A stretch of DNA of 64,000 nucleotides from the NCBI GenBank assembly GCA_963729855.1, contig CAVSPT010000006.1, positions 933,428 to 997,427 of the forward strand, in the 5' to 3' direction. The stretch comes from Candidatus Aminicenantes bacterium (GTDB taxonomy: Bacteria > Acidobacteriota > Aminicenantia > Aminicenantales > UBA4085). Positions 11,876-45,449 of the stretch are shown in pieces. The notes under the pieces are model-generated. The model was not told the origin of the DNA and did not search any database. It worked only from the letters and a program-made list of their open reading frames with translations. Every line of letters begins with the position of its first letter. The first letter of the stretch is position 1. The position numbers were made by a program, and so were the translations under genes.

Positions 11876-12307
11876 TCAGACCCGGAAAACGAGCCTGGCC
11901 AGGGCGGTCGTGACCGCCGTGGCCGTGGCCAGAGAGGCCAGGGTCAGCCAGAATTTCTGGCGAGCCAGAGTGTTGGCCAGCAAGCCGGGGACGATCCAGC
12001 CGATGACACGAAGATCGAGCGGGGCGGAAAACAATTTCGGCCAGAAGACAAGCCAGATCTGGCCGATCAGGCCCCCCAGAAGCAGCATGAAGACAAAGCG
12101 CCGGCGGCCGAAGAGAAGCAGCCTCGCCGACAGAAAGCGGAACGCCCCGAGCGCGAGGATGGCCGCTCCCAAGGTCGCCGCGATCCGCCAGGGCTGATCG
12201 GCGTAAAGGGCGAAATAGGCCGGGACGATGATCCCGCCCGGAAGGATCCCCGTGATTTCGACGTAGAGCAGGGCGACCGCCAGGCCGATCAGGATCGTGG
12301 TCGCCAT
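11876..12307 (-). CDS. pgsC: Poly-gamma-glutamate biosynthesis membrane protein PgsC/CapC
   Basis: 143 aa with four hydrophobic helices. MATTILIGLAVALLYVEITGILPGGIIVPAYFALY.. matches the CapC/PgsC pattern. ATG 12305-12307 overlaps the pgsB stop (ATGA). Only the last 143 codons of ORF-track 11876..13405 are used. Confidence 0.75.
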   Translation of the reverse strand: MATTILIGLAVALLYVEITGILPGGIIVPAYFALYADQPWRIAATLGAAILALGAFRFLSARLLLFGRRRFVFMLLLGGLIGQIWLVFWPKLFSAPLDLRVIGWIVPGLLANTLARQKFWLTLASLATATAVTTALARLVFRV

Positions 12308-13506
12308 CAGGCCGCCTCCCCGACGCGGTCCCAGAGATCGATGAGCGCAGCGCCCGCGCCGCCGATGTTGCCCATTCCGATGAACACCGCGGGCAGAGTC
12401 CCCGCCCGCATTTCGGCGGCGCCCATGATCCGGGCGGGGTCGACCCCGGCCACTCCGACGACGAACGGGCCCCGCGGGATGCGGCGGCCCAAGCGCCGGG
12501 CGGCGGGCATGGCCGGCCGCCCCACGACGAGGATCCCCGCGAAACCGGAGAAGAAACCCGCGCCGGCCGCTTCCAGCCACTGGCGGGTCCGGTCCTCCCG
12601 GTCCTCGCGAAGGTTCAGAATCCCGATCCGCCGCTCCGGCAAGCCGGGCCGGATCTCCGCCAGCCGGTCCAGGACGCGGCGGGTCGACTCGGGTTCGTTG
12701 GCGGCGAAAGCGCTCACGGCGTAGCGCGGCGGATCGGCGGGCCCGCCGTGCAGGCGCCTGATCCGGAGGGCGCCGAAGTCCGGGACGACCGCGTCCATTC
12801 CGGCCTCGGCCCGCTCGCGCCCGACCCCGAGCGTTTCGGCCGCGGCCAGGGCCAGGAGGCGATTCTCGGGGAACTCGAAATCGCCCCCGGGCCGGGAAGC
12901 GGTTTCGCCTCCCGGGACGCGGCCGGGAACGATCACGATCCGGGCGCCCTGCCGGCCGGCGGCGGCGTGGAAGGCCGGGTGGTCCTCGGCGGCCGGAACG
13001 AGGACCGTGCAGCCGGGCGCGATGGCCGCGCTCAGCGAGACGGCGACCGCGTCGCGGGTCCGGCCCATCTCTTCGCGGTGGTCGACGCGGGCGTTCGTAA
13101 TGACAAGGAGGTCCGGTTTCAGGATCCGGACCGCCTCGGCCCGCAGGCATTCCGGCCGGATGCTCATCATTTCGGCAACTAGGGCATCGACCCGGCCGCG
13201 CGCGGCGGTCCTCAGGACGCGCTTCTGTTCGAGGATGGAGGGCGGGCCGGTCCGGGCGATCAGGCGCTCCGATCCGTCCGTTCCGGACAGGGCGGGTCTC
13301 GATCCGGTCGTCTTGGCCAGGACGATCCGGCCGTCCCCGCGAAGGGCCGCGGCGATGAGGCGGGTCACGGACGACTTGCCTCGCGTTCCGGTCACGGCCA
13401 CGCACCGGGGGATGCGGCGCCGGGAGGCACCGAGGGACCGGTTCTCAGCCGACAGGAGGAGCAGGAAGCCGGTCAAAAGGGCCGACGCGGGAAGAAGTCC
13501 GTTCAC
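12307..13506 (-). CDS. pgsB: Poly-gamma-glutamate synthase PgsB/CapB (Mur-ligase-like amide ligase)
   Basis: Single N-terminal TM, then P-loop VAVTGTRGKSSVTRL, VAEMMSIRPE and LLVITNARVDHREEMG. The layout is as in CapB (about 393 aa). Start set to GTG 13506 (399 aa), because the ORF-track TTG 13572 lies inside the U-run of the upstream terminator. Confidence 0.8.
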   Translation of the reverse strand: MNGLLPASALLTGFLLLLSAENRSLGASRRRIPRCVAVTGTRGKSSVTRLIAAALRGDGRIVLAKTTGSRPALSGTDGSERLIARTGPPSILEQKRVLRTAARGRVDALVAEMMSIRPECLRAEAVRILKPDLLVITNARVDHREEMGRTRDAVAVSLSAAIAPGCTVLVPAAEDHPAFHAAAGRQGARIVIVPGRVPGGETASRPGGDFEFPENRLLALAAAETLGVGRERAEAGMDAVVPDFGALRIRRLHGGPADPPRYAVSAFAANEPESTRRVLDRLAEIRPGLPERRIGILNLREDREDRTRQWLEAAGAGFFSGFAGILVVGRPAMPAARRLGRRIPRGPFVVGVAGVDPARIMGAAEMRAGTLPAVFIGMGNIGGAGAALIDLWDRVGEAA

Positions 13507-13570
13507 GCCGATATTGTATTTTTTCTTCGGCCAAATGAACAGGCCCGAAAAGGCGGACCCGCGGCGGGCC

Positions 13571-13610
13571 AAAAAAAAAGAGGCGAAAGAGTTTGGGGCT
13601 CTTTCGCCTC
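13571..13610 (-). terminator. Rho-independent terminator (12-bp GC-rich stem, 7-nt loop, U9)
   Basis: Minus-strand RNA reads GAGGCGAAAGAG-ccccaaa-CUCUUUCGCCUC followed by UUUUUUUUU (plus-strand A-run 13571-13579). It lies downstream of the CheY-like gene and of a sigma-54-type promoter, 65 nt before pgsB. Confidence 0.65.
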
Positions 13611-13680
13611 CCCACTGAAAGGAAGAGAGTTGAAAAGTTTATGAAAGGCACTCGATAGGTGCCACTTCTGCTCTTAATCT

Positions 13681-13696
13681 TGCATATTTCGTGCCA
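13681..13696 (-). promoter_or_regulatory. Sigma-54 (-24/-12) promoter candidate upstream of the terminator/pgsB leader
   Basis: Minus strand TGGCACgaaatATGCA keeps GG-N10-GC and matches the consensus TGGCAC-N5-TTGCW. It lies in an AT-rich intergenic region. Confidence 0.55.
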
Positions 13697-13805
13697 TATT
13701 CGGATCGGACTTTTGAAACGATCCATCTCTGTAAACGGTTTTCATCCGGTCCGGAAACGGAAAATACCGCAAACAGAATTTACATGATGAAAAAAAAGTT
13801 TACGT

Positions 13806-14192
13806 TTAGAGGCTTTTCCCAAGGAATTCGTCCTTGGTCAGCAGGTAATCGATCGACCGGCTCAAGGCGTCCAGGTCGAGCGGCTTGGCGAAGAAATGGC
13901 CGATCCCCAGCCGGCTCAGCACGCCGGGATCGACGAGCTCGGCATGGGCGGAAATGAGGATGACCTCGCCCCGGTAGCCTTTGGCCCGGAGATCGGAGAC
14001 TAGCTCCACGCCGTCTTTGCCCGGCAGGCGCAGATCGGCAATAAGCAGGTCGAAGGCCCCGCTCTTGAAACGCTCCAGGACTTCCTCGGCGTCCTTGGCC
14101 GGATAAACCCGGTACTTTTTGTTCAACAGGAGGAAGAAGGTTTTGCGGATGGATTCTTCGTCGTCGACGAGGACGATTTTTTTGCCTAACAT
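13806..14192 (-). CDS. Single-domain response regulator (CheY-like receiver)
   Basis: 128 aa. VLVDDEESIRK.., phospho-acceptor context DLLIADLRLPGKDG, and a conserved K region (FFAKPLD). ATG 14192 with AAAGGA upstream. No output domain. Confidence 0.85.
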   Translation of the reverse strand: MLGKKIVLVDDEESIRKTFFLLLNKKYRVYPAKDAEEVLERFKSGAFDLLIADLRLPGKDGVELVSDLRAKGYRGEVILISAHAELVDPGVLSRLGIGHFFAKPLDLDALSRSIDYLLTKDEFLGKSL

Positions 14193-14230
14193 TTCATATC
14201 CTTTCTCAGATGACTGACGTCTGAAGATTA

Positions 14231-14246
14231 TGCAGGTTTTGTGCCA
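14231..14246 (-). promoter_or_regulatory. Sigma-54 (-24/-12) promoter candidate for the CheY-like gene
   Basis: Minus strand TGGCACaaaacCTGCA (GG-N10-GC), ending about 38 nt upstream of ATG 14192. Confidence 0.6.
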
Positions 14247-14348
14247 ACGCCCCGATCAAGAGATCAGGGGAAATTCCGGGGCCTGTTGTCCTCCCGAGAG
14301 GACGCCCGCCAAGGTAATTTACAGGAGCGGGTAAAGTCTCTTTGCGCG

Positions 14349-15683
14349 CTAAATCTCCAAGCTGTAATCCTTGATCTTCTTGTCCAGCGTCGGCCGGCTG
14401 ATCTGGAGGATCTGGCTGGCCTGCGTCTTGCTCCCCTTCACCGACGTCAGGACGTAGCGGATGTACTCCTTTTCCACTTCATCGAGCGAGGTCAGCGTCC
14501 GGGCGAAAAGCTTCTTGTCCTCGATGTCGACGGGCAGGTTCTCCTTCAGGACGATGTCGCCCTTGGCCAGGATGACCGCCCGGGTCAGGGCGTTTTCCAG
14601 CTCCCGGACGTTCCCCTTCCAAGTCAGATCGGTCAACATCTTCATGACCTCCGGCGGAACCTTGCGGACGTTCTTGCGCAGGTCGCGGTTGATCTTCTCC
14701 AGCAGATAGGCGGCCAGGTCGGGGATGTCCTCTTTGCGCTCGCGCAGCGGCGGCAGGTCGATTTCCACGACTTTCAGCCGGTAATACAGGTCCTCGCGGA
14801 ATTTGCCGGCCTCGATGAAGGCCCGCAGGCTTTGGTTGGTGGCGGCGATGATGCGGGCCTCGGTTTTCAGGACCCTCTCCCCGCCGACCTTCATGAAGTC
14901 CCGCGACTCGATGACCCGCAGGAGCTTGGACTGCAGGTTGGGCGAGACGTCGCCGATCTCGTCCAGGAACAGCGTGCCCTTGCCGGCGATCTCGAATTTG
15001 CCCTTGGTCTCGCAGTGGGCGTCGGTGAAGGCCCCCTTGACGTGGCCGAAGAGCTCGGACTCGAGCAGGGTGTCCTGGATGGCCGAGCAGTTGATGACGA
15101 TGAAGGGCTCGTCGCGGAAGGGGCTGTTGTAATGGATGGCCTTGGCCACGAGCTCCTTGCCCGTCCCGCTCTCGCCCTGGATGAGGACGTTGGTCCGCGT
15201 TCCGGCCACCGAGCCGATCAGCTTGAAGACGTCCCGCATGCGGGGCGAGCGGCCGATGAGGTTGTCGATCGTATAGTCCTTCTGCTTTTCCTGGATGAGG
15301 TAGCTGACCTTCTCTTCCAAGGCCTTGACCTGGAAGGCCTTCTCCACGGTCAGGTCGAGGGCCACGTAGTCGAGCGGCTTGACCAGATATTCGAAGGCCC
15401 CCAGCTTGACCGCCTCGACCGTCGTCTTCATGTCGTCGAAGGCGGTCATGATGACGACCGAAGCGGGATTTTCGTCCTCTTTCAGGCGGCGCAGGACGTC
15501 CAGGCCGTCCCGGTCGGGCAGGCGGATGTCCAGAAGAATGAGGTCGGGCCCCATTTCGGCCGCCCGGACCAGCCCGCTCTCGCCGTCCTCGGCCGTCTGG
15601 GCCTCGTATCCTTTCTTGCTCAGGTGGGAGGCCAGCGTTTTGCGGATGAGGGCGTCGTCGTCGATGATCAGAATGGACTTCAT
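14349..15683 (-). CDS. Sigma-54-dependent response regulator (NtrC-family enhancer-binding protein)
   Basis: 444 aa, ATG 15683 (ATGA overlap with the kinase stop). The ORF-track 777-aa version adds an out-of-context N-terminus read through the kinase gene. REC domain (LIIDDDALIRK, DLILLDIRLPDRDGL). AAA+ core (GESGTGKELVAKAIH, GAFTDA loop, TLFLDEIGD, RIIAATNQ). Fis-type HTH (SKTQASQILQISRPTLDKKIK). Confidence 0.9.
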   Translation of the reverse strand: MKSILIIDDDALIRKTLASHLSKKGYEAQTAEDGESGLVRAAEMGPDLILLDIRLPDRDGLDVLRRLKEDENPASVVIMTAFDDMKTTVEAVKLGAFEYLVKPLDYVALDLTVEKAFQVKALEEKVSYLIQEKQKDYTIDNLIGRSPRMRDVFKLIGSVAGTRTNVLIQGESGTGKELVAKAIHYNSPFRDEPFIVINCSAIQDTLLESELFGHVKGAFTDAHCETKGKFEIAGKGTLFLDEIGDVSPNLQSKLLRVIESRDFMKVGGERVLKTEARIIAATNQSLRAFIEAGKFREDLYYRLKVVEIDLPPLRERKEDIPDLAAYLLEKINRDLRKNVRKVPPEVMKMLTDLTWKGNVRELENALTRAVILAKGDIVLKENLPVDIEDKKLFARTLTSLDEVEKEYIRYVLTSVKGSKTQASQILQISRPTLDKKIKDYSLEI

Positions 15684-17137
15684 GGCAGGTCCTCGCAGGG
15701 CAGCAGGATTTCGAAGGCCGTTCCCGGCCCGCGATGGGGGACGACACGGATGGAGCCCTTGTGCTGTTCGATGATCTTGCGGGCGTTGGCCAGGCCAAGG
15801 CCGAAGCCCTGGGGCTTGGTCGTGAAGAAGGGTTCGAAGATGGTCTCCCAGTCCTTCTCGGGGATGCCGCAGCCGTTGTCCGAGATGCGGACGCGCAGCC
15901 GGCAGACGCCGCCCTGGTCGATCCGGGCGGCGGCGATGGACACCCGGCCCCCGGGCTCGACGGCCTCGGCCGAATTGCGCAGGACGTTGGCGAAAACCTG
16001 GCGGAGGCGGTCGCCGTCCACGGCGACTTCGGGCAGTCCGGGGGCGTAACGCCGCTCCACGGCGATCCGCTTCTCGGCGAAGGCGCCGCGGAGGAGCTTG
16101 ATGCTCTCGTCCAGGACCTGCTCGATGGCGAAGCGGTCCTTCTGCAGCTCGGAGACCCGGGTGAAATTGAGGAGCTCCTTGATGAAGCGCTCGATCTGGC
16201 CGATGCCTTCCTCGGACAGGGCCAGGTGCTCGTGCTCGATCTCGTCGATGTGCGGGCTGCTCCGGATCTTCTGGATGTTCAGCTTGACTGAGGTCAGGGG
16301 GTTGCGGATCTCGTGGGCGATGGTCACGGCCATCCGTCCGATCTGGGCCAGCTTCTCCGACTGGATGAGCTTCTTGTTGGTCGCCTCGATCTCCTCGAGC
16401 GTCAGGCGGAGCTTCTCGCTCATCTCGTTGAAGCGGCTGGCCAGGTGGCCGATTTCGTCCTTGGAATCGATGTCGATCTTGTGGGCGAAATCGCCGCGGG
16501 CGATGCGGACCGTGCCCTCGGACAAGCGTTTCAGGGGCCGAGTGATCCGGCGGGCCAGGACGGTCGCGCCCAGAGTGCCCAGCAGCAGGCCGGCCGCGCC
16601 GAGGAGGAGGAGGACCCGGCGGATCTTGCGGATCTCGGCCGGCAGGCGGGCCAGGGACAGGCCCAGCTTGACCGAGCCCCACCGGCTGTCCGAGCCCCGG
16701 TCGTAAATGGGGATCTCGATCTCCAGGATGCGGCGGAGGGCCTTGTTCAGAAGGACGTCCTTGGCCTGGATATAGACGCTTTTCGGACGGATATCGCCCT
16801 GGAGCTGGCTCTGGCTGTAAACGGCCCGTTCGGAGGCGATCTGGCGGTTATAGACGATCGGGGTGGCGTAGCGGTCGTAGATGACGATGTACAGCCGGTT
16901 CTCGTCGATCTGCTCGTCCACGCTGGACTGCAAGGCGTCGACGTCCCAGACCAGGAGCGAGCGGAGATTGGCCTCGGCCATGCTCCGGGCGAAGAGCAGC
17001 CCGCGGTTGGTGAATTCGTCGAAAATGGTGTTGACTTCGCGTCTCTCGACGACCCAGAGGACGGCCGCGACCAGGACGATGACCAGGGCGGCCGACCAGA
17101 TGGCGAAGCGCTTCTGCAGGGACAGCTGGACCATCAC
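15680..17137 (-). CDS. Membrane sensor histidine kinase (periplasmic domain, HAMP, HisKA, HATPase_c)
   Basis: Start is GTG 17137 or ATG 17134; both overlap the SBP stop (GTGATGG). TM1 (AIWSAALVIVLVAAVLWVV), a periplasmic region of about 150 aa, TM2, and HAMP (RPLKRLSEGTVRIARGDFAHKIDIDSKDEIGHLASRFNEM). H-box AVTIAHEIRNPLTSV. N/G boxes VLRNSAEA, DNGCGIP and GFGLGLA. Confidence 0.85.
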   Translation of the reverse strand: MMVQLSLQKRFAIWSAALVIVLVAAVLWVVERREVNTIFDEFTNRGLLFARSMAEANLRSLLVWDVDALQSSVDEQIDENRLYIVIYDRYATPIVYNRQIASERAVYSQSQLQGDIRPKSVYIQAKDVLLNKALRRILEIEIPIYDRGSDSRWGSVKLGLSLARLPAEIRKIRRVLLLLGAAGLLLGTLGATVLARRITRPLKRLSEGTVRIARGDFAHKIDIDSKDEIGHLASRFNEMSEKLRLTLEEIEATNKKLIQSEKLAQIGRMAVTIAHEIRNPLTSVKLNIQKIRSSPHIDEIEHEHLALSEEGIGQIERFIKELLNFTRVSELQKDRFAIEQVLDESIKLLRGAFAEKRIAVERRYAPGLPEVAVDGDRLRQVFANVLRNSAEAVEPGGRVSIAAARIDQGGVCRLRVRISDNGCGIPEKDWETIFEPFFTTKPQGFGLGLANARKIIEQHKGSIRVVPHRGPGTAFEILLPCEDLP

Positions 17138-18753
17138 GGTCTCTGGTCCTTCGGGTCCAGCCAGACGAAGCGGGTGTCGAGGTAGGAGAGGCCCATGGCC
17201 GGGATCTTCAGCCCGTGGACGCGGCCCTGGACGGCGAAACGCTCCTCGGAGAAGAATAGCGGCAGGGCCGGCACGTCCTGGGCCAGGATCCTCTCCATGC
17301 GGCGGAAGAGATCGACGCGCCGGGTCCAGCTTTTTTCCACATCGGCCTCCTCGTAGAGTTTGTCGAAATCCGGCGACGCGTAGCGGCAGGCCGAGCGGTT
17401 GAATTCCGAGCCCGACGTGAACAGCGGCTGGACGATGCTTTCGGCGTCGGGGAAATCCATCCGCCAGGGGACGAAGGCCAGAAACGGCTGCTTGACGTCA
17501 TGCAAGGCGGCCATCGAGCGGACAAAACGGACGGACACCGGAATTCCGACCGCTCCGAGCTGGGCCTCCATCTCGCGGCCCAGCTGGACGGTCGCTTCGG
17601 AGCGCGGAAGGGGGATGAAGCAGAGGAGCTCGGGAAATGACCGTTCCACGAAATACCCGAAATCGGAGAGGAGGCGGCGGGCCTTTCCGGGATCGCCCGA
17701 CAACAGGTCGTCCAAGGGAAAGAATCCCGGAAGTCCGGAGGGGATGAAATTGGCCGAGCTGCGCAGGGCTCCGGCAGGGCCGCCCCAAGCCAGGGCCAGC
17801 TTGTCCTTGTCGATGGCGGCGGCGACGGCCAGGCGGACCGCGGCGCTGTCCAGGGGAGGATTCTGACAGCTCATCATCAGGTACGTCATGTTGTAGAGCC
17901 CGCCCTGGACGATCTGCGACTTGGAGGTCGCCATCCGTTCGGACAGGAAAGGCATGACGTGGACGTCACCGTCCATGAACTGGTTGATGGAAAAATGAGG
18001 GCTGAATTCGACGATGTCTAGATAGGGCCGGCGGTCGTGGTAGCGGGGGAAGCGCTCCAGCCGGACGCCGACCACGTCCAGGAGGGGGCTGCGGACCCAA
18101 TACCCGAATTTGAACGGCCCCGTGCCCACCGGCTGCCAGAAGAAACTCCGGCCCTGGTCGAGGAGCAGGTCCCGGGGCAGGATCTTGCAGAAGCTCATGC
18201 TCAGGAGGTAAAGGGCCGAGACATAGGGGTTCTTCCACTGGATCTCGAAGACGAATTTCTCGGGGGCCCGGAATCCCGAGACCTCGTCGGCCTTGCCGTC
18301 CCAGAACTCCTGGGCCCCGGCCACCTTGTTGATGAACAACGGGGCGTAAGGCGACTGGGTGTCCCGACGGAGCAGCCGTTCCAGCGAGAACTTGACGTCC
18401 TGCGAGTCCATCTCCCGGCCGTGATGGAACATGACGCCCCGCTTCAGGATAAATGTCGTCCGCCGGCCGTCCTCGGAGATGATCCAATATTCGGCCAGGG
18501 CGGGGATGATGTCGAGCTTGGCGCTGAGGCGAACGAGGCCCTCGTAGAGCTGTTCCGTGGCAAACGTCCAGGAAGGGACGGCCGGGTCCAGGTTGGGCTG
18601 AAGCGGCCCGCCGTCCTCGCGGACACGCAGGACGCCTCCATATCTGGGCACGTCCTCGGAGGGGGCCGGGCCCGCCGATCCCGCGATCAGGCCGGACGCG
18701 AGAAGGACCGCCGATACGGCGATCGATCCCCGTTTGAGATGGCTTTTATTCAT
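17134..18753 (-). CDS. Periplasmic solute-binding protein, family 5 (DppA/OppA-like), without cognate transporter genes
   Basis: 539 aa. Signal peptide (MNKSHLKRGSIAVSAVLLASGLIAGSA). PRYGGVLRV, LAEYWIISEDGRRTTFILKRGVMFHHG and GTGPFKF are typical of SBP_bac_5. No permease or ATPase gene is adjacent; the stop overlaps the kinase start. Confidence 0.8.
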   Translation of the reverse strand: MNKSHLKRGSIAVSAVLLASGLIAGSAGPAPSEDVPRYGGVLRVREDGGPLQPNLDPAVPSWTFATEQLYEGLVRLSAKLDIIPALAEYWIISEDGRRTTFILKRGVMFHHGREMDSQDVKFSLERLLRRDTQSPYAPLFINKVAGAQEFWDGKADEVSGFRAPEKFVFEIQWKNPYVSALYLLSMSFCKILPRDLLLDQGRSFFWQPVGTGPFKFGYWVRSPLLDVVGVRLERFPRYHDRRPYLDIVEFSPHFSINQFMDGDVHVMPFLSERMATSKSQIVQGGLYNMTYLMMSCQNPPLDSAAVRLAVAAAIDKDKLALAWGGPAGALRSSANFIPSGLPGFFPLDDLLSGDPGKARRLLSDFGYFVERSFPELLCFIPLPRSEATVQLGREMEAQLGAVGIPVSVRFVRSMAALHDVKQPFLAFVPWRMDFPDAESIVQPLFTSGSEFNRSACRYASPDFDKLYEEADVEKSWTRRVDLFRRMERILAQDVPALPLFFSEERFAVQGRVHGLKIPAMGLSYLDTRFVWLDPKDQRP

Positions 18754-18774
18754 TAAGGAAACGATGAAATTTAG

Positions 18775-18790
18775 AGCAATCTTTATGCCA
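18775..18790 (-). promoter_or_regulatory. Sigma-54 (-24/-12) promoter candidate for the SBP-kinase-activator operon
   Basis: Minus strand TGGCATaaagaTTGCT (GG-N10-GC), about 22 nt upstream of ATG 18753. This implies a short leader with a weak SD. Confidence 0.5.
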
Positions 18791-18861
18791 GAAAGCCGAA
18801 CTGCTTTTCGGCCTGAAAAAAGCTCATTCCTGCCCGTCTACTCAAATAATCGAGTTTAATT

Positions 18862-18878
18862 TGTAAATTTATTTTACA
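18862..18878. promoter_or_regulatory. 17-bp palindrome TGTAAAtttatTTTACA, candidate enhancer (UAS)
   Basis: Perfect 6-bp arms with a 5-bp spacer, centred about 81 nt upstream of the -24 GG of the 18775-18790 promoter candidate. The half-site TGTAAATT recurs upstream of the other two nearby sigma-54 candidates. Confidence 0.35.
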
Positions 18879-45433: not shown

Positions 45434-45449
45434 AGCAACTTCCGTGCCA
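45434..45449 (-). promoter_or_regulatory. Sigma-54 (-24/-12) promoter candidate for the FecR-like gene
   Basis: Minus strand TGGCACggaagTTGCT is a full match to TGGCAC-N5-TTGCW. It ends 28 nt upstream of ATG 45405, between the upstream terminator and the RBS. Confidence 0.6.

Follow-up and report, generated by a model that had tools for sequence, protein, structure and literature searches.

A conserved family of predicted sigma-54-driven small RNAs upstream of the poly-gamma-glutamate gene pgsB in Aminicenantes

What is encoded where a sigma-54 promoter is followed, only about 100 nt later, by a strong intrinsic terminator, directly in front of pgsB? We addressed this question for a 64-kb stretch of DNA from a Candidatus Aminicenantes bacterium (contig CAVSPT010000006.1; hereafter the window), in which a first-pass annotation had offered two answers, a small RNA (sRNA) or an attenuating leader of pgsB. 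We consider it reasonably likely that the unit is an independent gene for a ~100-nt, sigma-54-driven, trans-acting sRNA with a seed resembling the anti-Shine-Dalgarno (anti-SD) sequence. The sRNA is probably switched on via sigma-54 by the neighbouring two-component system, and it probably acts on other mRNAs rather than gating pgsB as a leader. Across related loci, the promoter, 5′ hairpin, core and terminator are conserved, the unit is non-coding and independent of the downstream gene, an activator gene is syntenic with it, and upstream motifs are shared; from these sequence data, we infer the transcription of the unit, the binding of the activator, the base-pairing mechanism and the targets.

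The elements of the unit in the window are the following.

13571..13671, minus strand: predicted small RNA of ~97-101 nt that would start near 13670 and end with the U-run
13696->13681, minus strand: sigma-54 (-24/-12) promoter TGGCACGAAATATGCA, an exact TGGCAC-N6-TGCA match
13663->13647, minus strand: 5′-terminal hairpin GGCAC-CUAUCGA-GUGCC, its stem invariant in the canonical family
13605..13634, minus strand: 30-nt core UUCAACUCUCUUCCUUUCAGUGGGGAGGCG, defined by its invariance and unpaired probability
13629->13617, minus strand: CU-rich anti-SD-like tract CUCUCUUCCUUUC, unpaired, within the 30-nt core
13571..13613, minus strand: intrinsic terminator from the terminator scan, with a 12-15 bp stem, a 7-nt loop and U9

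The start of the sRNA was placed 12 nt downstream of the -12 GC (13683-13682), and its 3′ end was set at the T9 run. The promoter carries the -24 GG and the -12 GC at the correct spacing and stands directly upstream of the RNA. Exact TGGCAC-N6-TGCA matches occur twice in the 64 kb against 0.08 expected, a number reached in none of 100 shuffles (0/100), and the second copy precedes a CheY-like gene (14246-14231). The terminator scan gave a stem at 13613->13577 with 15 pairs (7 G-C) and a 7-nt loop; read from the sequence, its core comprises 12 Watson-Crick bp (13610-13599 with 13591-13580), followed by T9 at 13579->13571. When a 105-nt transcript was folded (-33.5 kcal/mol, z = -2.75), the CU tract was single-stranded. 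This tract is CU-rich and complementary to SD sequences, and it can pair with AAAGGA before the CheY-like gene and with GGGGAGG before pgsC; such pairing is generic and singles out no particular target. The promoter, the small 5′ hairpin, the unpaired CU-rich stretch and the terminator (12-bp stem, U9; 13610->13571) are thus all present as the first-pass annotation had described them. The covariance model that we built for the family (R1) scored 117 bits at the sRNA, its sole match within the window.

The unit recurs in relatives. In a GTDB sample of 80 species-level pgsB loci, we sought it with a regular expression for the core and confirmed the matches with R1; it was found in 12 loci, which gives 13 GTDB-derived copies counting the window. 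When metagenome contigs were scanned with a 22-nt pattern from the core, 39 loci were returned, and 37 of them are true copies; the other two (L082 and L084) are chance matches without the promoter, hairpin and terminator of the sRNA and apparently lie in coding DNA. The pooled copies comprise 38 distinct sequences, all Aminicenantes-like, and the PgsB homologues come nearly all from Aminicenantes metagenome-assembled genomes (MAGs). Because the promoter and terminator recur with the unit in 38 distinct sequences from other genomes, the arrangement is far beyond chance. Loss of the region in relatives had been named as grounds for abandoning the proposal, and this recurrence speaks for it instead.

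The pattern of conservation differs from element to element. TGGCAY-N5-NTGCW is kept in 37 of the 38 distinct orthologous upstream regions, the exception being L089 with CGGCAC, and the GG and GC of the -24/-12 element are invariant across the orthologous sRNA promoters. Among the 12 canonical GTDB loci, 10 have exactly the 30-nt core of the window, and the other two, L003 and L043, differ from it at a single position each; this constancy persists while PgsB identity drops to ~47% across the same loci; the mean unpaired probability of the core is 0.90 (34 sequences). The stem of the 5′ hairpin is constant in sequence in the canonical family, with a loop of 6-8 nt, and in L113 a hairpin of unrelated sequence occupies its position. 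We infer that this hairpin protects the 5′ end. The terminator hairpin averages -21.6 kcal/mol, and its upper stem changes in a compensatory manner (GAAAGAG/CUCUUUC, GGAAGA/UCUUCC, GAAGGAG/CUCCUUC); across the family, 98.4% of the alignment cells are paired, and one pair is G-C in 20 sequences and A-U in 17.

The orthologues differ in the loop and the linker by indels of 1, 2 and 8 nt, and no start codon is conserved among them. Therefore, the unit is non-coding, in agreement with the earlier remark that no plausible open reading frame (ORF) lies between promoter and terminator. The same indels rule out a small protein from a 93-aa ORF (13726-13445) that spans promoter, RNA and terminator. Two other candidates were rejected. 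A second sigma-54 promoter at the TGGCAC of the hairpin (13664) is contradicted by a TGC lying 2 nt too far away, and in most orthologues the T before the GGCAC is replaced by A, C or another base. A role of the hairpin as a DNA operator is contradicted by the spacing of its arms, which varies from 6 to 8 nt, and by the unrelated hairpin of L113.

The RNA does not depend on what follows it. The canonical RNA of L095 has a divergent gene on one side and is followed by a convergent one, which encodes a 1024-aa propeller/GGDEF protein, with no CheY gene nearby. L043 and L065 share a convergent gene of 134-136 aa, its two copies 43% identical, that stands between the RNA and pgsB (L043:5404-5814 and L065:5088-5492, minus strand; lipoprotein-like, with no Pfam match for the L065 copy). 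Since this gene converges on the terminator, the latter may work in both directions in these two loci. A 744-aa DUF5916/CBM9 gene lies between the RNA and pgsB in L001, L094 and L097, and in L001 we read a TAGAAT box before it. At the level of sequence, the covarying terminator, the frame-breaking indels and the convergent or unrelated downstream genes in L095, L043, L065 and L001 together predict a discrete transcript that is non-coding, stops at its own terminator and does not rely on its neighbours.

No known family accounts for the RNA. As the first-pass annotation had advised, we searched Rfam 15 (4227 families) with window positions 12000-15500 and with L001, L009, L010, L014, L065, L069 and L113, and no match reached the gathering score; Qrr, GlmY, GlmZ, CrcZ and Pxr gave no match in this search even at E ≤ 10. 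The best sub-threshold match was RF00519 (suhB/MmgR), with E = 1.2 for the 3.5-kb region and 0.063 for 181 nt. Its 18.9 bits lie below the gathering score of 41, so the sRNA is not a member of RF00519. Our literature search did not find a description of this RNA. On these comparative grounds, the predicted RNA is a conserved, previously unannotated sRNA family of Aminicenantes.

Beyond the canonical family, other CU-rich RNAs driven by sigma-54 were observed.

L010:5631-5780, L069:5013-5320, L009:3283-3440, L081:1617-1755 and L113:8070-8196: divergent sigma-54-driven CU-rich RNAs

The promoter is retained in L009, L081 and L113 together with a form of the CU core, which has diverged in L009; all three have a longer 3′ domain, and the RNAs of L009 and L113 finish with a CU-rich tail. 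In L010 and L069, the CheY gene is followed by a sigma-54 promoter and then by other CU-rich RNAs, the one in L069 containing a run of CU-rich repeats (CCUCCUUUUUGCCCUUCUUUGCCCUUCUUUCC...). The divergent RNAs sit after the CheY-like gene in L010, L069 and L081, and no CheY gene was detected within the sequenced flank examined in L009 and L113.

Which system could drive the sRNA? On the minus strand, Pfam and NCBIfam models give the order SBP_bac_5, HAMP histidine kinase, NtrC-type activator, CheY-like regulator, RNA unit, PgsB, PgsC (TIGR04011), TIGR04332 ('poly-gamma-glutamate system protein') and a PAS/GAF kinase. The features upstream of the RNA are as follows.

18878-18862, minus strand: palindrome TGTAAA-N5-TTTACA, ~75 nt upstream of the next site (motif coordinates)
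18790-18775, minus strand: sigma-54-like site TGGCATAAAGATTGCT of the binding-protein operon (looser pattern search)
18753-17134, minus strand: SBP_bac_5 protein (Pfam/NCBIfam)
17137-15680, minus strand: HAMP histidine kinase (Pfam/NCBIfam)
~15683-14349, minus strand: NtrC-type sigma-54 activator with receiver, Sigma54_activat and HTH_8 domains (Pfam/NCBIfam)
14335-14318, minus strand: TTTAC-N8-GTAAA site of the CheY-like gene promoter (motif coordinates)
14246-14231, minus strand: sigma-54 promoter of the CheY-like gene (exact pattern match)
14192-13806, minus strand: CheY-like single-domain response regulator (Pfam Response_reg)
13731..13803, minus strand: candidate upstream activating sequence (UAS) half-sites GTAAA 13803-13799, GTAAA 13783-13779 and TTTAC 13735-13731 (motif enrichment)
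14349..18878, minus strand: context block of the probable controlling system (binding protein, kinase and activator with their own promoter region)
13806..14246, minus strand: context block of the CheY-like gene and its sigma-54 promoter

Wherever enough upstream flank is available, the cluster of binding protein, kinase, activator and CheY-like gene lies 148 nt to ~7 kb upstream of the RNA on the same strand. The pgsB-pgsC-gamma_Glu_sys genes lie 30 nt to 2.3 kb downstream, also on one strand with it. Neither the RNA nor the sigma-54 sites were present in the pgsB loci that lack the NtrC/CheY cluster. Additionally, two or more TTTAC/GTAAA half-sites lie at -150 to -40 in 26 of 34 distinct sRNA promoters, compared with 2% of random and 15% of AT-rich windows; the half-sites are often 20-21 nt apart, and the pentamers number 38 in the whole window. 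Such sites are enriched at all three sigma-54 promoters, and the gene for the NtrC-type enhancer-binding protein, whose contact motif reads GAFTDA, lies in the same cluster upstream of the sRNA. The half-sites common to the three promoters suggest that the adjacent activator controls a single regulon, made up of its own operon, the CheY-like gene and the RNA, and that it would bind at the candidate TTTAC/GTAAA sites. The operon's own sigma-54-like site and the palindrome upstream of it suggest positive autoregulation of the binding protein, kinase and activator genes. This site and the palindrome are conserved in L014, L081, L087, L094, L107 and L114, and L098 keeps the site with a similar GTAAA-N5-TTTAC. 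As no terminator was found between the CheY stop codon (13806) and the RNA in the window, either by the terminator scan or by reading the sequence, CheY transcripts probably also end at the sRNA terminator.

Some further features of these neighbourhoods were observed. In several loci (L004:1651-4218, L114:7968-10448), a TPR-CHAT protein of ~830-855 aa and some unknown ORFs lie between the CheY-like gene and the RNA. A set of Aminicenantes pgsB loci without the RNA (L018, L022, L024, L025, L028, L030, L031, L033, L036, L038, L046, L050, L058-L060, L063, L070 and L077) has another conserved sigma-54 promoter, TGGCATGATAMTTGCT; it is on the strand opposite pgsB and points away from it, with a conserved 'ATCCAATTTTTTGGATAAGTCCAAAA' element upstream. 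In the window, a perfect sigma-54 consensus, TGGCACGGAAGTTGCT (45434-45449, minus strand), lies 28 nt before the ATG of a gene running from 45405 downwards, which encodes a 646-aa secreted protein with a Ser/Arg-rich tail. Since no TTTAC/GTAAA sites lie upstream, this promoter probably belongs to the regulon of a different activator.

Overall, we propose a putative mechanism for the sRNA. The system of binding protein, histidine kinase and NtrC-type activator would sense a signal, possibly a peptide or an amino acid, as its family-5 binding protein suggests. The phosphorylated activator would then bind the TTTAC/GTAAA sites ~65-130 nt upstream and open the sigma-54 promoter at 13696-13681, and the same activator would open two further sigma-54 promoters as well, that of the CheY-like gene and that of its own operon. 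Transcription would begin near 13670 and end at the strong terminator (13613-13571), and the product would consist of the 5′ hairpin, an unpaired linker of ~35 nt and the terminator hairpin with its U tail. The invariant linker, UUCAACUCUCUUCCUUUCAG, is similar to the anti-SD tail of 16S rRNA; it would base-pair with target mRNAs elsewhere in the genome at their purine-rich ribosome-binding sites and change their translation or stability.

Several observations weigh against this proposal. Where the downstream flank is at least ~2.6 kb, pgsB lies no more than 2.4 kb downstream on the same strand in 18 of 20 metagenome loci, and such tight synteny could point to a cis role of the RNA. No covariation was seen in the 5′ hairpin stem among the canonical copies. 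The activator has GAFTDA rather than the canonical GAFTGA sigma-54 contact motif in all 27 of 27 copies (ELFGH-VKGAFTDA). The expression of the sRNA is itself predicted from the sequence. Finally, no specific target emerged, and the seed matches neighbouring start regions no better than in generic SD pairing. The best neighbour, the start region of pgsC, has a mean of -14.1 kcal/mol against a background of -9.6 kcal/mol, and it scores the same in RNA-less loci (-14.4 vs -14.1, p = 0.85); the start regions of the genes for CheY, the binding protein, the kinase, NtrC, PgsB and gamma_Glu_sys pair at background. In a sliding duplex scan of the window, most of the top matches besides the self-antisense match were inside coding regions. 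A single match in a start region (45445) was rejected as a target; it involves, in part, bases that precede the predicted transcription start. No convincing partner emerged within the window, and the sRNA targets probably lie elsewhere in the genome. A 9-mer, GGGGAGGCG, occurs both in the 5′ arm of the terminator (13605-13613) and in the pgsC SD (12313-12321), on the minus strand, the latter copy at the TGATG overlap of pgsB and pgsC. We rejected it as a functional link because conserved Gly-Glu codons of PgsB encode it, which makes the recurrence probably coincidental.

Could the RNA bind a protein rather than mRNAs? A pyrimidine-rich core might titrate an S1-like, Hfq-like or other binder, as the sigma-54/CbrB-driven CrcZ does. 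Thirty invariant nucleotides exceed a minimal seed, the 5′ hairpin stem is kept in sequence rather than by covariation, and divergent variants (L069 and the tail of L113) contain several CU-rich repeats, all of which would fit a sponge or decoy. However, known sponges have many repeated sites, against one CU tract in the canonical RNA, and no candidate binding protein is encoded alongside. Moreover, sRNAs with many targets, such as Qrr, usually also have long invariant seeds. We regard a protein-binding sponge as unlikely, although it is the rival that survives best.

The second suggestion of the first-pass annotation, a transcription-attenuating leader gating gamma-PGA synthesis, would require the CU tract to pair with the 5′ arm of the terminator, or a factor to bind, so that transcription reads through into pgsBC. 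The position of the unit, 30-200 nt upstream of pgsB and on the same strand in the window and many other loci, is compatible with such a leader, and the CU tract does share some similarity with the terminator's 3′ arm, as had been noted. The antiterminator role built on this similarity did not hold: the duplex of the CU tract with the 5′ arm reaches ~-10 kcal/mol before any loop penalty, about half the stability of the terminator (-21.6 kcal/mol), and the core is 90% unpaired. Because the core stays invariant while the upper stem changes (GAAAGAG, GGAAGA, GAAGGAG), the two do not covary. There are thus no comparable, mutually exclusive structures of the attenuator or riboswitch type, and the RNA is not always directly upstream of and co-oriented with pgsB, since the gene after it is convergent in L095, L043 and L065 and is not pgsB in L001, L094 and L097.

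The start of pgsB argues against a leader as well. The GTG at 13506 opens a PgsB equivalog (TIGR04012, 229.9 bits) and lies 65 nt past the end of the U-run, as previously read, with the following element before it.

13504..13518, minus strand: TACAAT -10 box (13518-13513), 6-nt spacer and pgsB GTG (13506-13504), a context feature outside the RNA

The first-pass annotation had seen no convincing promoter for pgsB. However, the TACAAT proved to be a conserved TAnAAT box 6 nt before the GTG in 10 of the 13 RNA-bearing loci (the window, L001, L003, L004, L011, L014, L015, L020, L026 and L043), compared with 1 of the 67 loci without the RNA. L002 and L005 have the same GGCGGCTAGAAT box with a leader of 22-23 nt before pgsB. 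No SD precedes the pgsB GTG. Since the box is fixed 6 nt before the GTG, these sequences suggest that pgsB has its own promoter and a leaderless mRNA. Read-through into pgsB would presumably be unproductive because the start codon would come without a ribosome-binding site. In the PgsB tree, the RNA-bearing loci group as a single clade, and the co-occurrence of the RNA with a leaderless pgsB therefore seems to be explained largely by shared ancestry. Taking the convergent genes, the weak alternative pairing and the -10 box of pgsB together, we consider an attenuating leader quite unlikely; of the two original alternatives, it is the sigma-54-driven sRNA with an unpaired anti-SD stretch that stands, with promoter, hairpin, core and terminator conserved together.

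A cis-acting element without any function of the RNA itself is also conceivable, in which sigma-54 transcription or tight termination modulates or insulates a sigma-70 promoter of pgsB. The strong synteny with pgsB agrees with it, and in L014, L020 and L115 the U-run of the terminator abuts the putative -35 of the pgsB promoter. However, an insulator needs neither an invariant, unpaired 30-nt core nor a conserved 5′ hairpin, and the RNA persists where pgsB is not adjacent (L095, L001, L043 and L065), so we find this explanation decidedly improbable.

The canonical anti-SD sequence of the 16S rRNA tail is CCUCCUUUC. The core sequence CUUCCUUUC is one base off it, and the variant in L009 carries it exactly. 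The core might thus mimic the 3′ tail of 16S rRNA and compete broadly for SD sequences. If so, induction of the sRNA by the two-component system would shift translation toward leaderless mRNAs such as pgsB. However, stoichiometric titration of SD sequences by a single sRNA is implausible, and we give such mimicry only a very slim chance. As for the idea that the terminator merely ends the CheY-like mRNA, that the -24/-12 match is fortuitous and that no separate unit exists, the lack of any terminator from the CheY stop codon (13806) to the hairpin at 13613 in the window would fit it, but it is scarcely credible and already contradicted by the comparative sequence data, as 37 of 38 distinct sequences retain the promoter, the unit keeps promoter and terminator where the CheY gene is 1.5-7 kb away with genes between, and it is kept in L095 with no CheY gene near.

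How, then, does the proposed sRNA compare with known systems? The first-pass annotation had likened the locus to Qrr and GlmY/GlmZ. This likeness holds for the circuit design and fails for family membership, as no Rfam match was found. The closest systems in circuit design are Qrr/LuxO, GlmY/GlrR and MmgR, none of which is homologous. Like the Qrr genes of Vibrio, which are driven by LuxO and sigma-54, the sRNA gene adjoins the gene for its presumed activating NtrC-family response regulator, and both RNAs have a long, invariant, unpaired seed and a terminator. The activator's own operon belongs to the circuit in both cases, here with its own sigma-54 promoter and UAS. In contrast to Qrr, the RNA has no Rfam Qrr sequence or structure match, it is present in one copy in the 64-kb window, and its seed is CU-rich. 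GlmY/GlmZ of Enterobacteria share with it sigma-54 promoters driven by an adjacent two-component system (GlrK-GlrR) and a small RNA ending at a terminator. However, Rfam gave no match to them, and GlmY works by protein mimicry and GlmZ by activation of glmS; nothing here suggests either. CrcZ/CrcY of Pseudomonas, under CbrB and sigma-54, are likewise non-coding, dependent on sigma-54 and an NtrC-family activator, and located beside the regulator. CrcZ is ~400 nt long and has several A-rich Hfq/Crc sites, whereas the Aminicenantes RNA is ~100 nt with one pyrimidine tract.

The alpha-proteobacterial sRNAs come closest in the seed. MmgR (alpha-r8) of Sinorhizobium meliloti, the RF00519 'suhB' family, is likewise a short RNA that combines a small 5′ hairpin with an unpaired CU-rich anti-SD motif and an intrinsic terminator. 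It is described as induced by NtrC, has an annotated RpoN promoter and an anti-SD motif, and limits accumulation of the polymer polyhydroxybutyrate (PMC7143759). The Aminicenantes RNA comes from a different phylum and has its anti-SD tract in the linker, whereas that of MmgR is in a loop; the neighbouring polymer genes make poly-gamma-glutamate. AbcR1/2 and NfeR1 have unpaired CU-rich anti-SD motifs in common with it, for which pairing with the ribosome-binding sites of many mRNAs has been proposed (PMC7143759). NfeR1 forms a feedback loop with NtrBC (PMC10746234); its promoter is of the sigma-70 type, and the AbcR entries in a review table are RpoD and RpoH (PMC7143759). These RNAs have two or three copies of the motif in loops or unpaired regions, in contrast to the single motif in the linker and the sigma-54 promoter here, and they have no sequence homology to the Aminicenantes RNA.

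The type of system proposed, a sigma-54-dependent sRNA with an anti-SD seed beside a two-component regulator, is already well known from Proteobacteria. To our knowledge, the Aminicenantes (candidate phylum OP8) have no cultured model, and we did not find a described regulatory RNA for them in the literature. The locus offers a readable circuit: a sensor (binding protein and kinase), an NtrC-type activator, three sigma-54 promoters with a common motif and an invariant seed. The linkage to poly-gamma-glutamate genes and the apparently leaderless pgsB provide entry points to the control of an extracellular polymer. Additionally, the sRNA family can be used for RNA databases, for the annotation of MAGs and for the interpretation of metatranscriptomes, and the Aminicenantes lineage that carries it is widespread in sediment and peat. 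The family is unsurprising in kind; what it offers is a clean annotation and a useful way into the regulation of an uncultured phylum.

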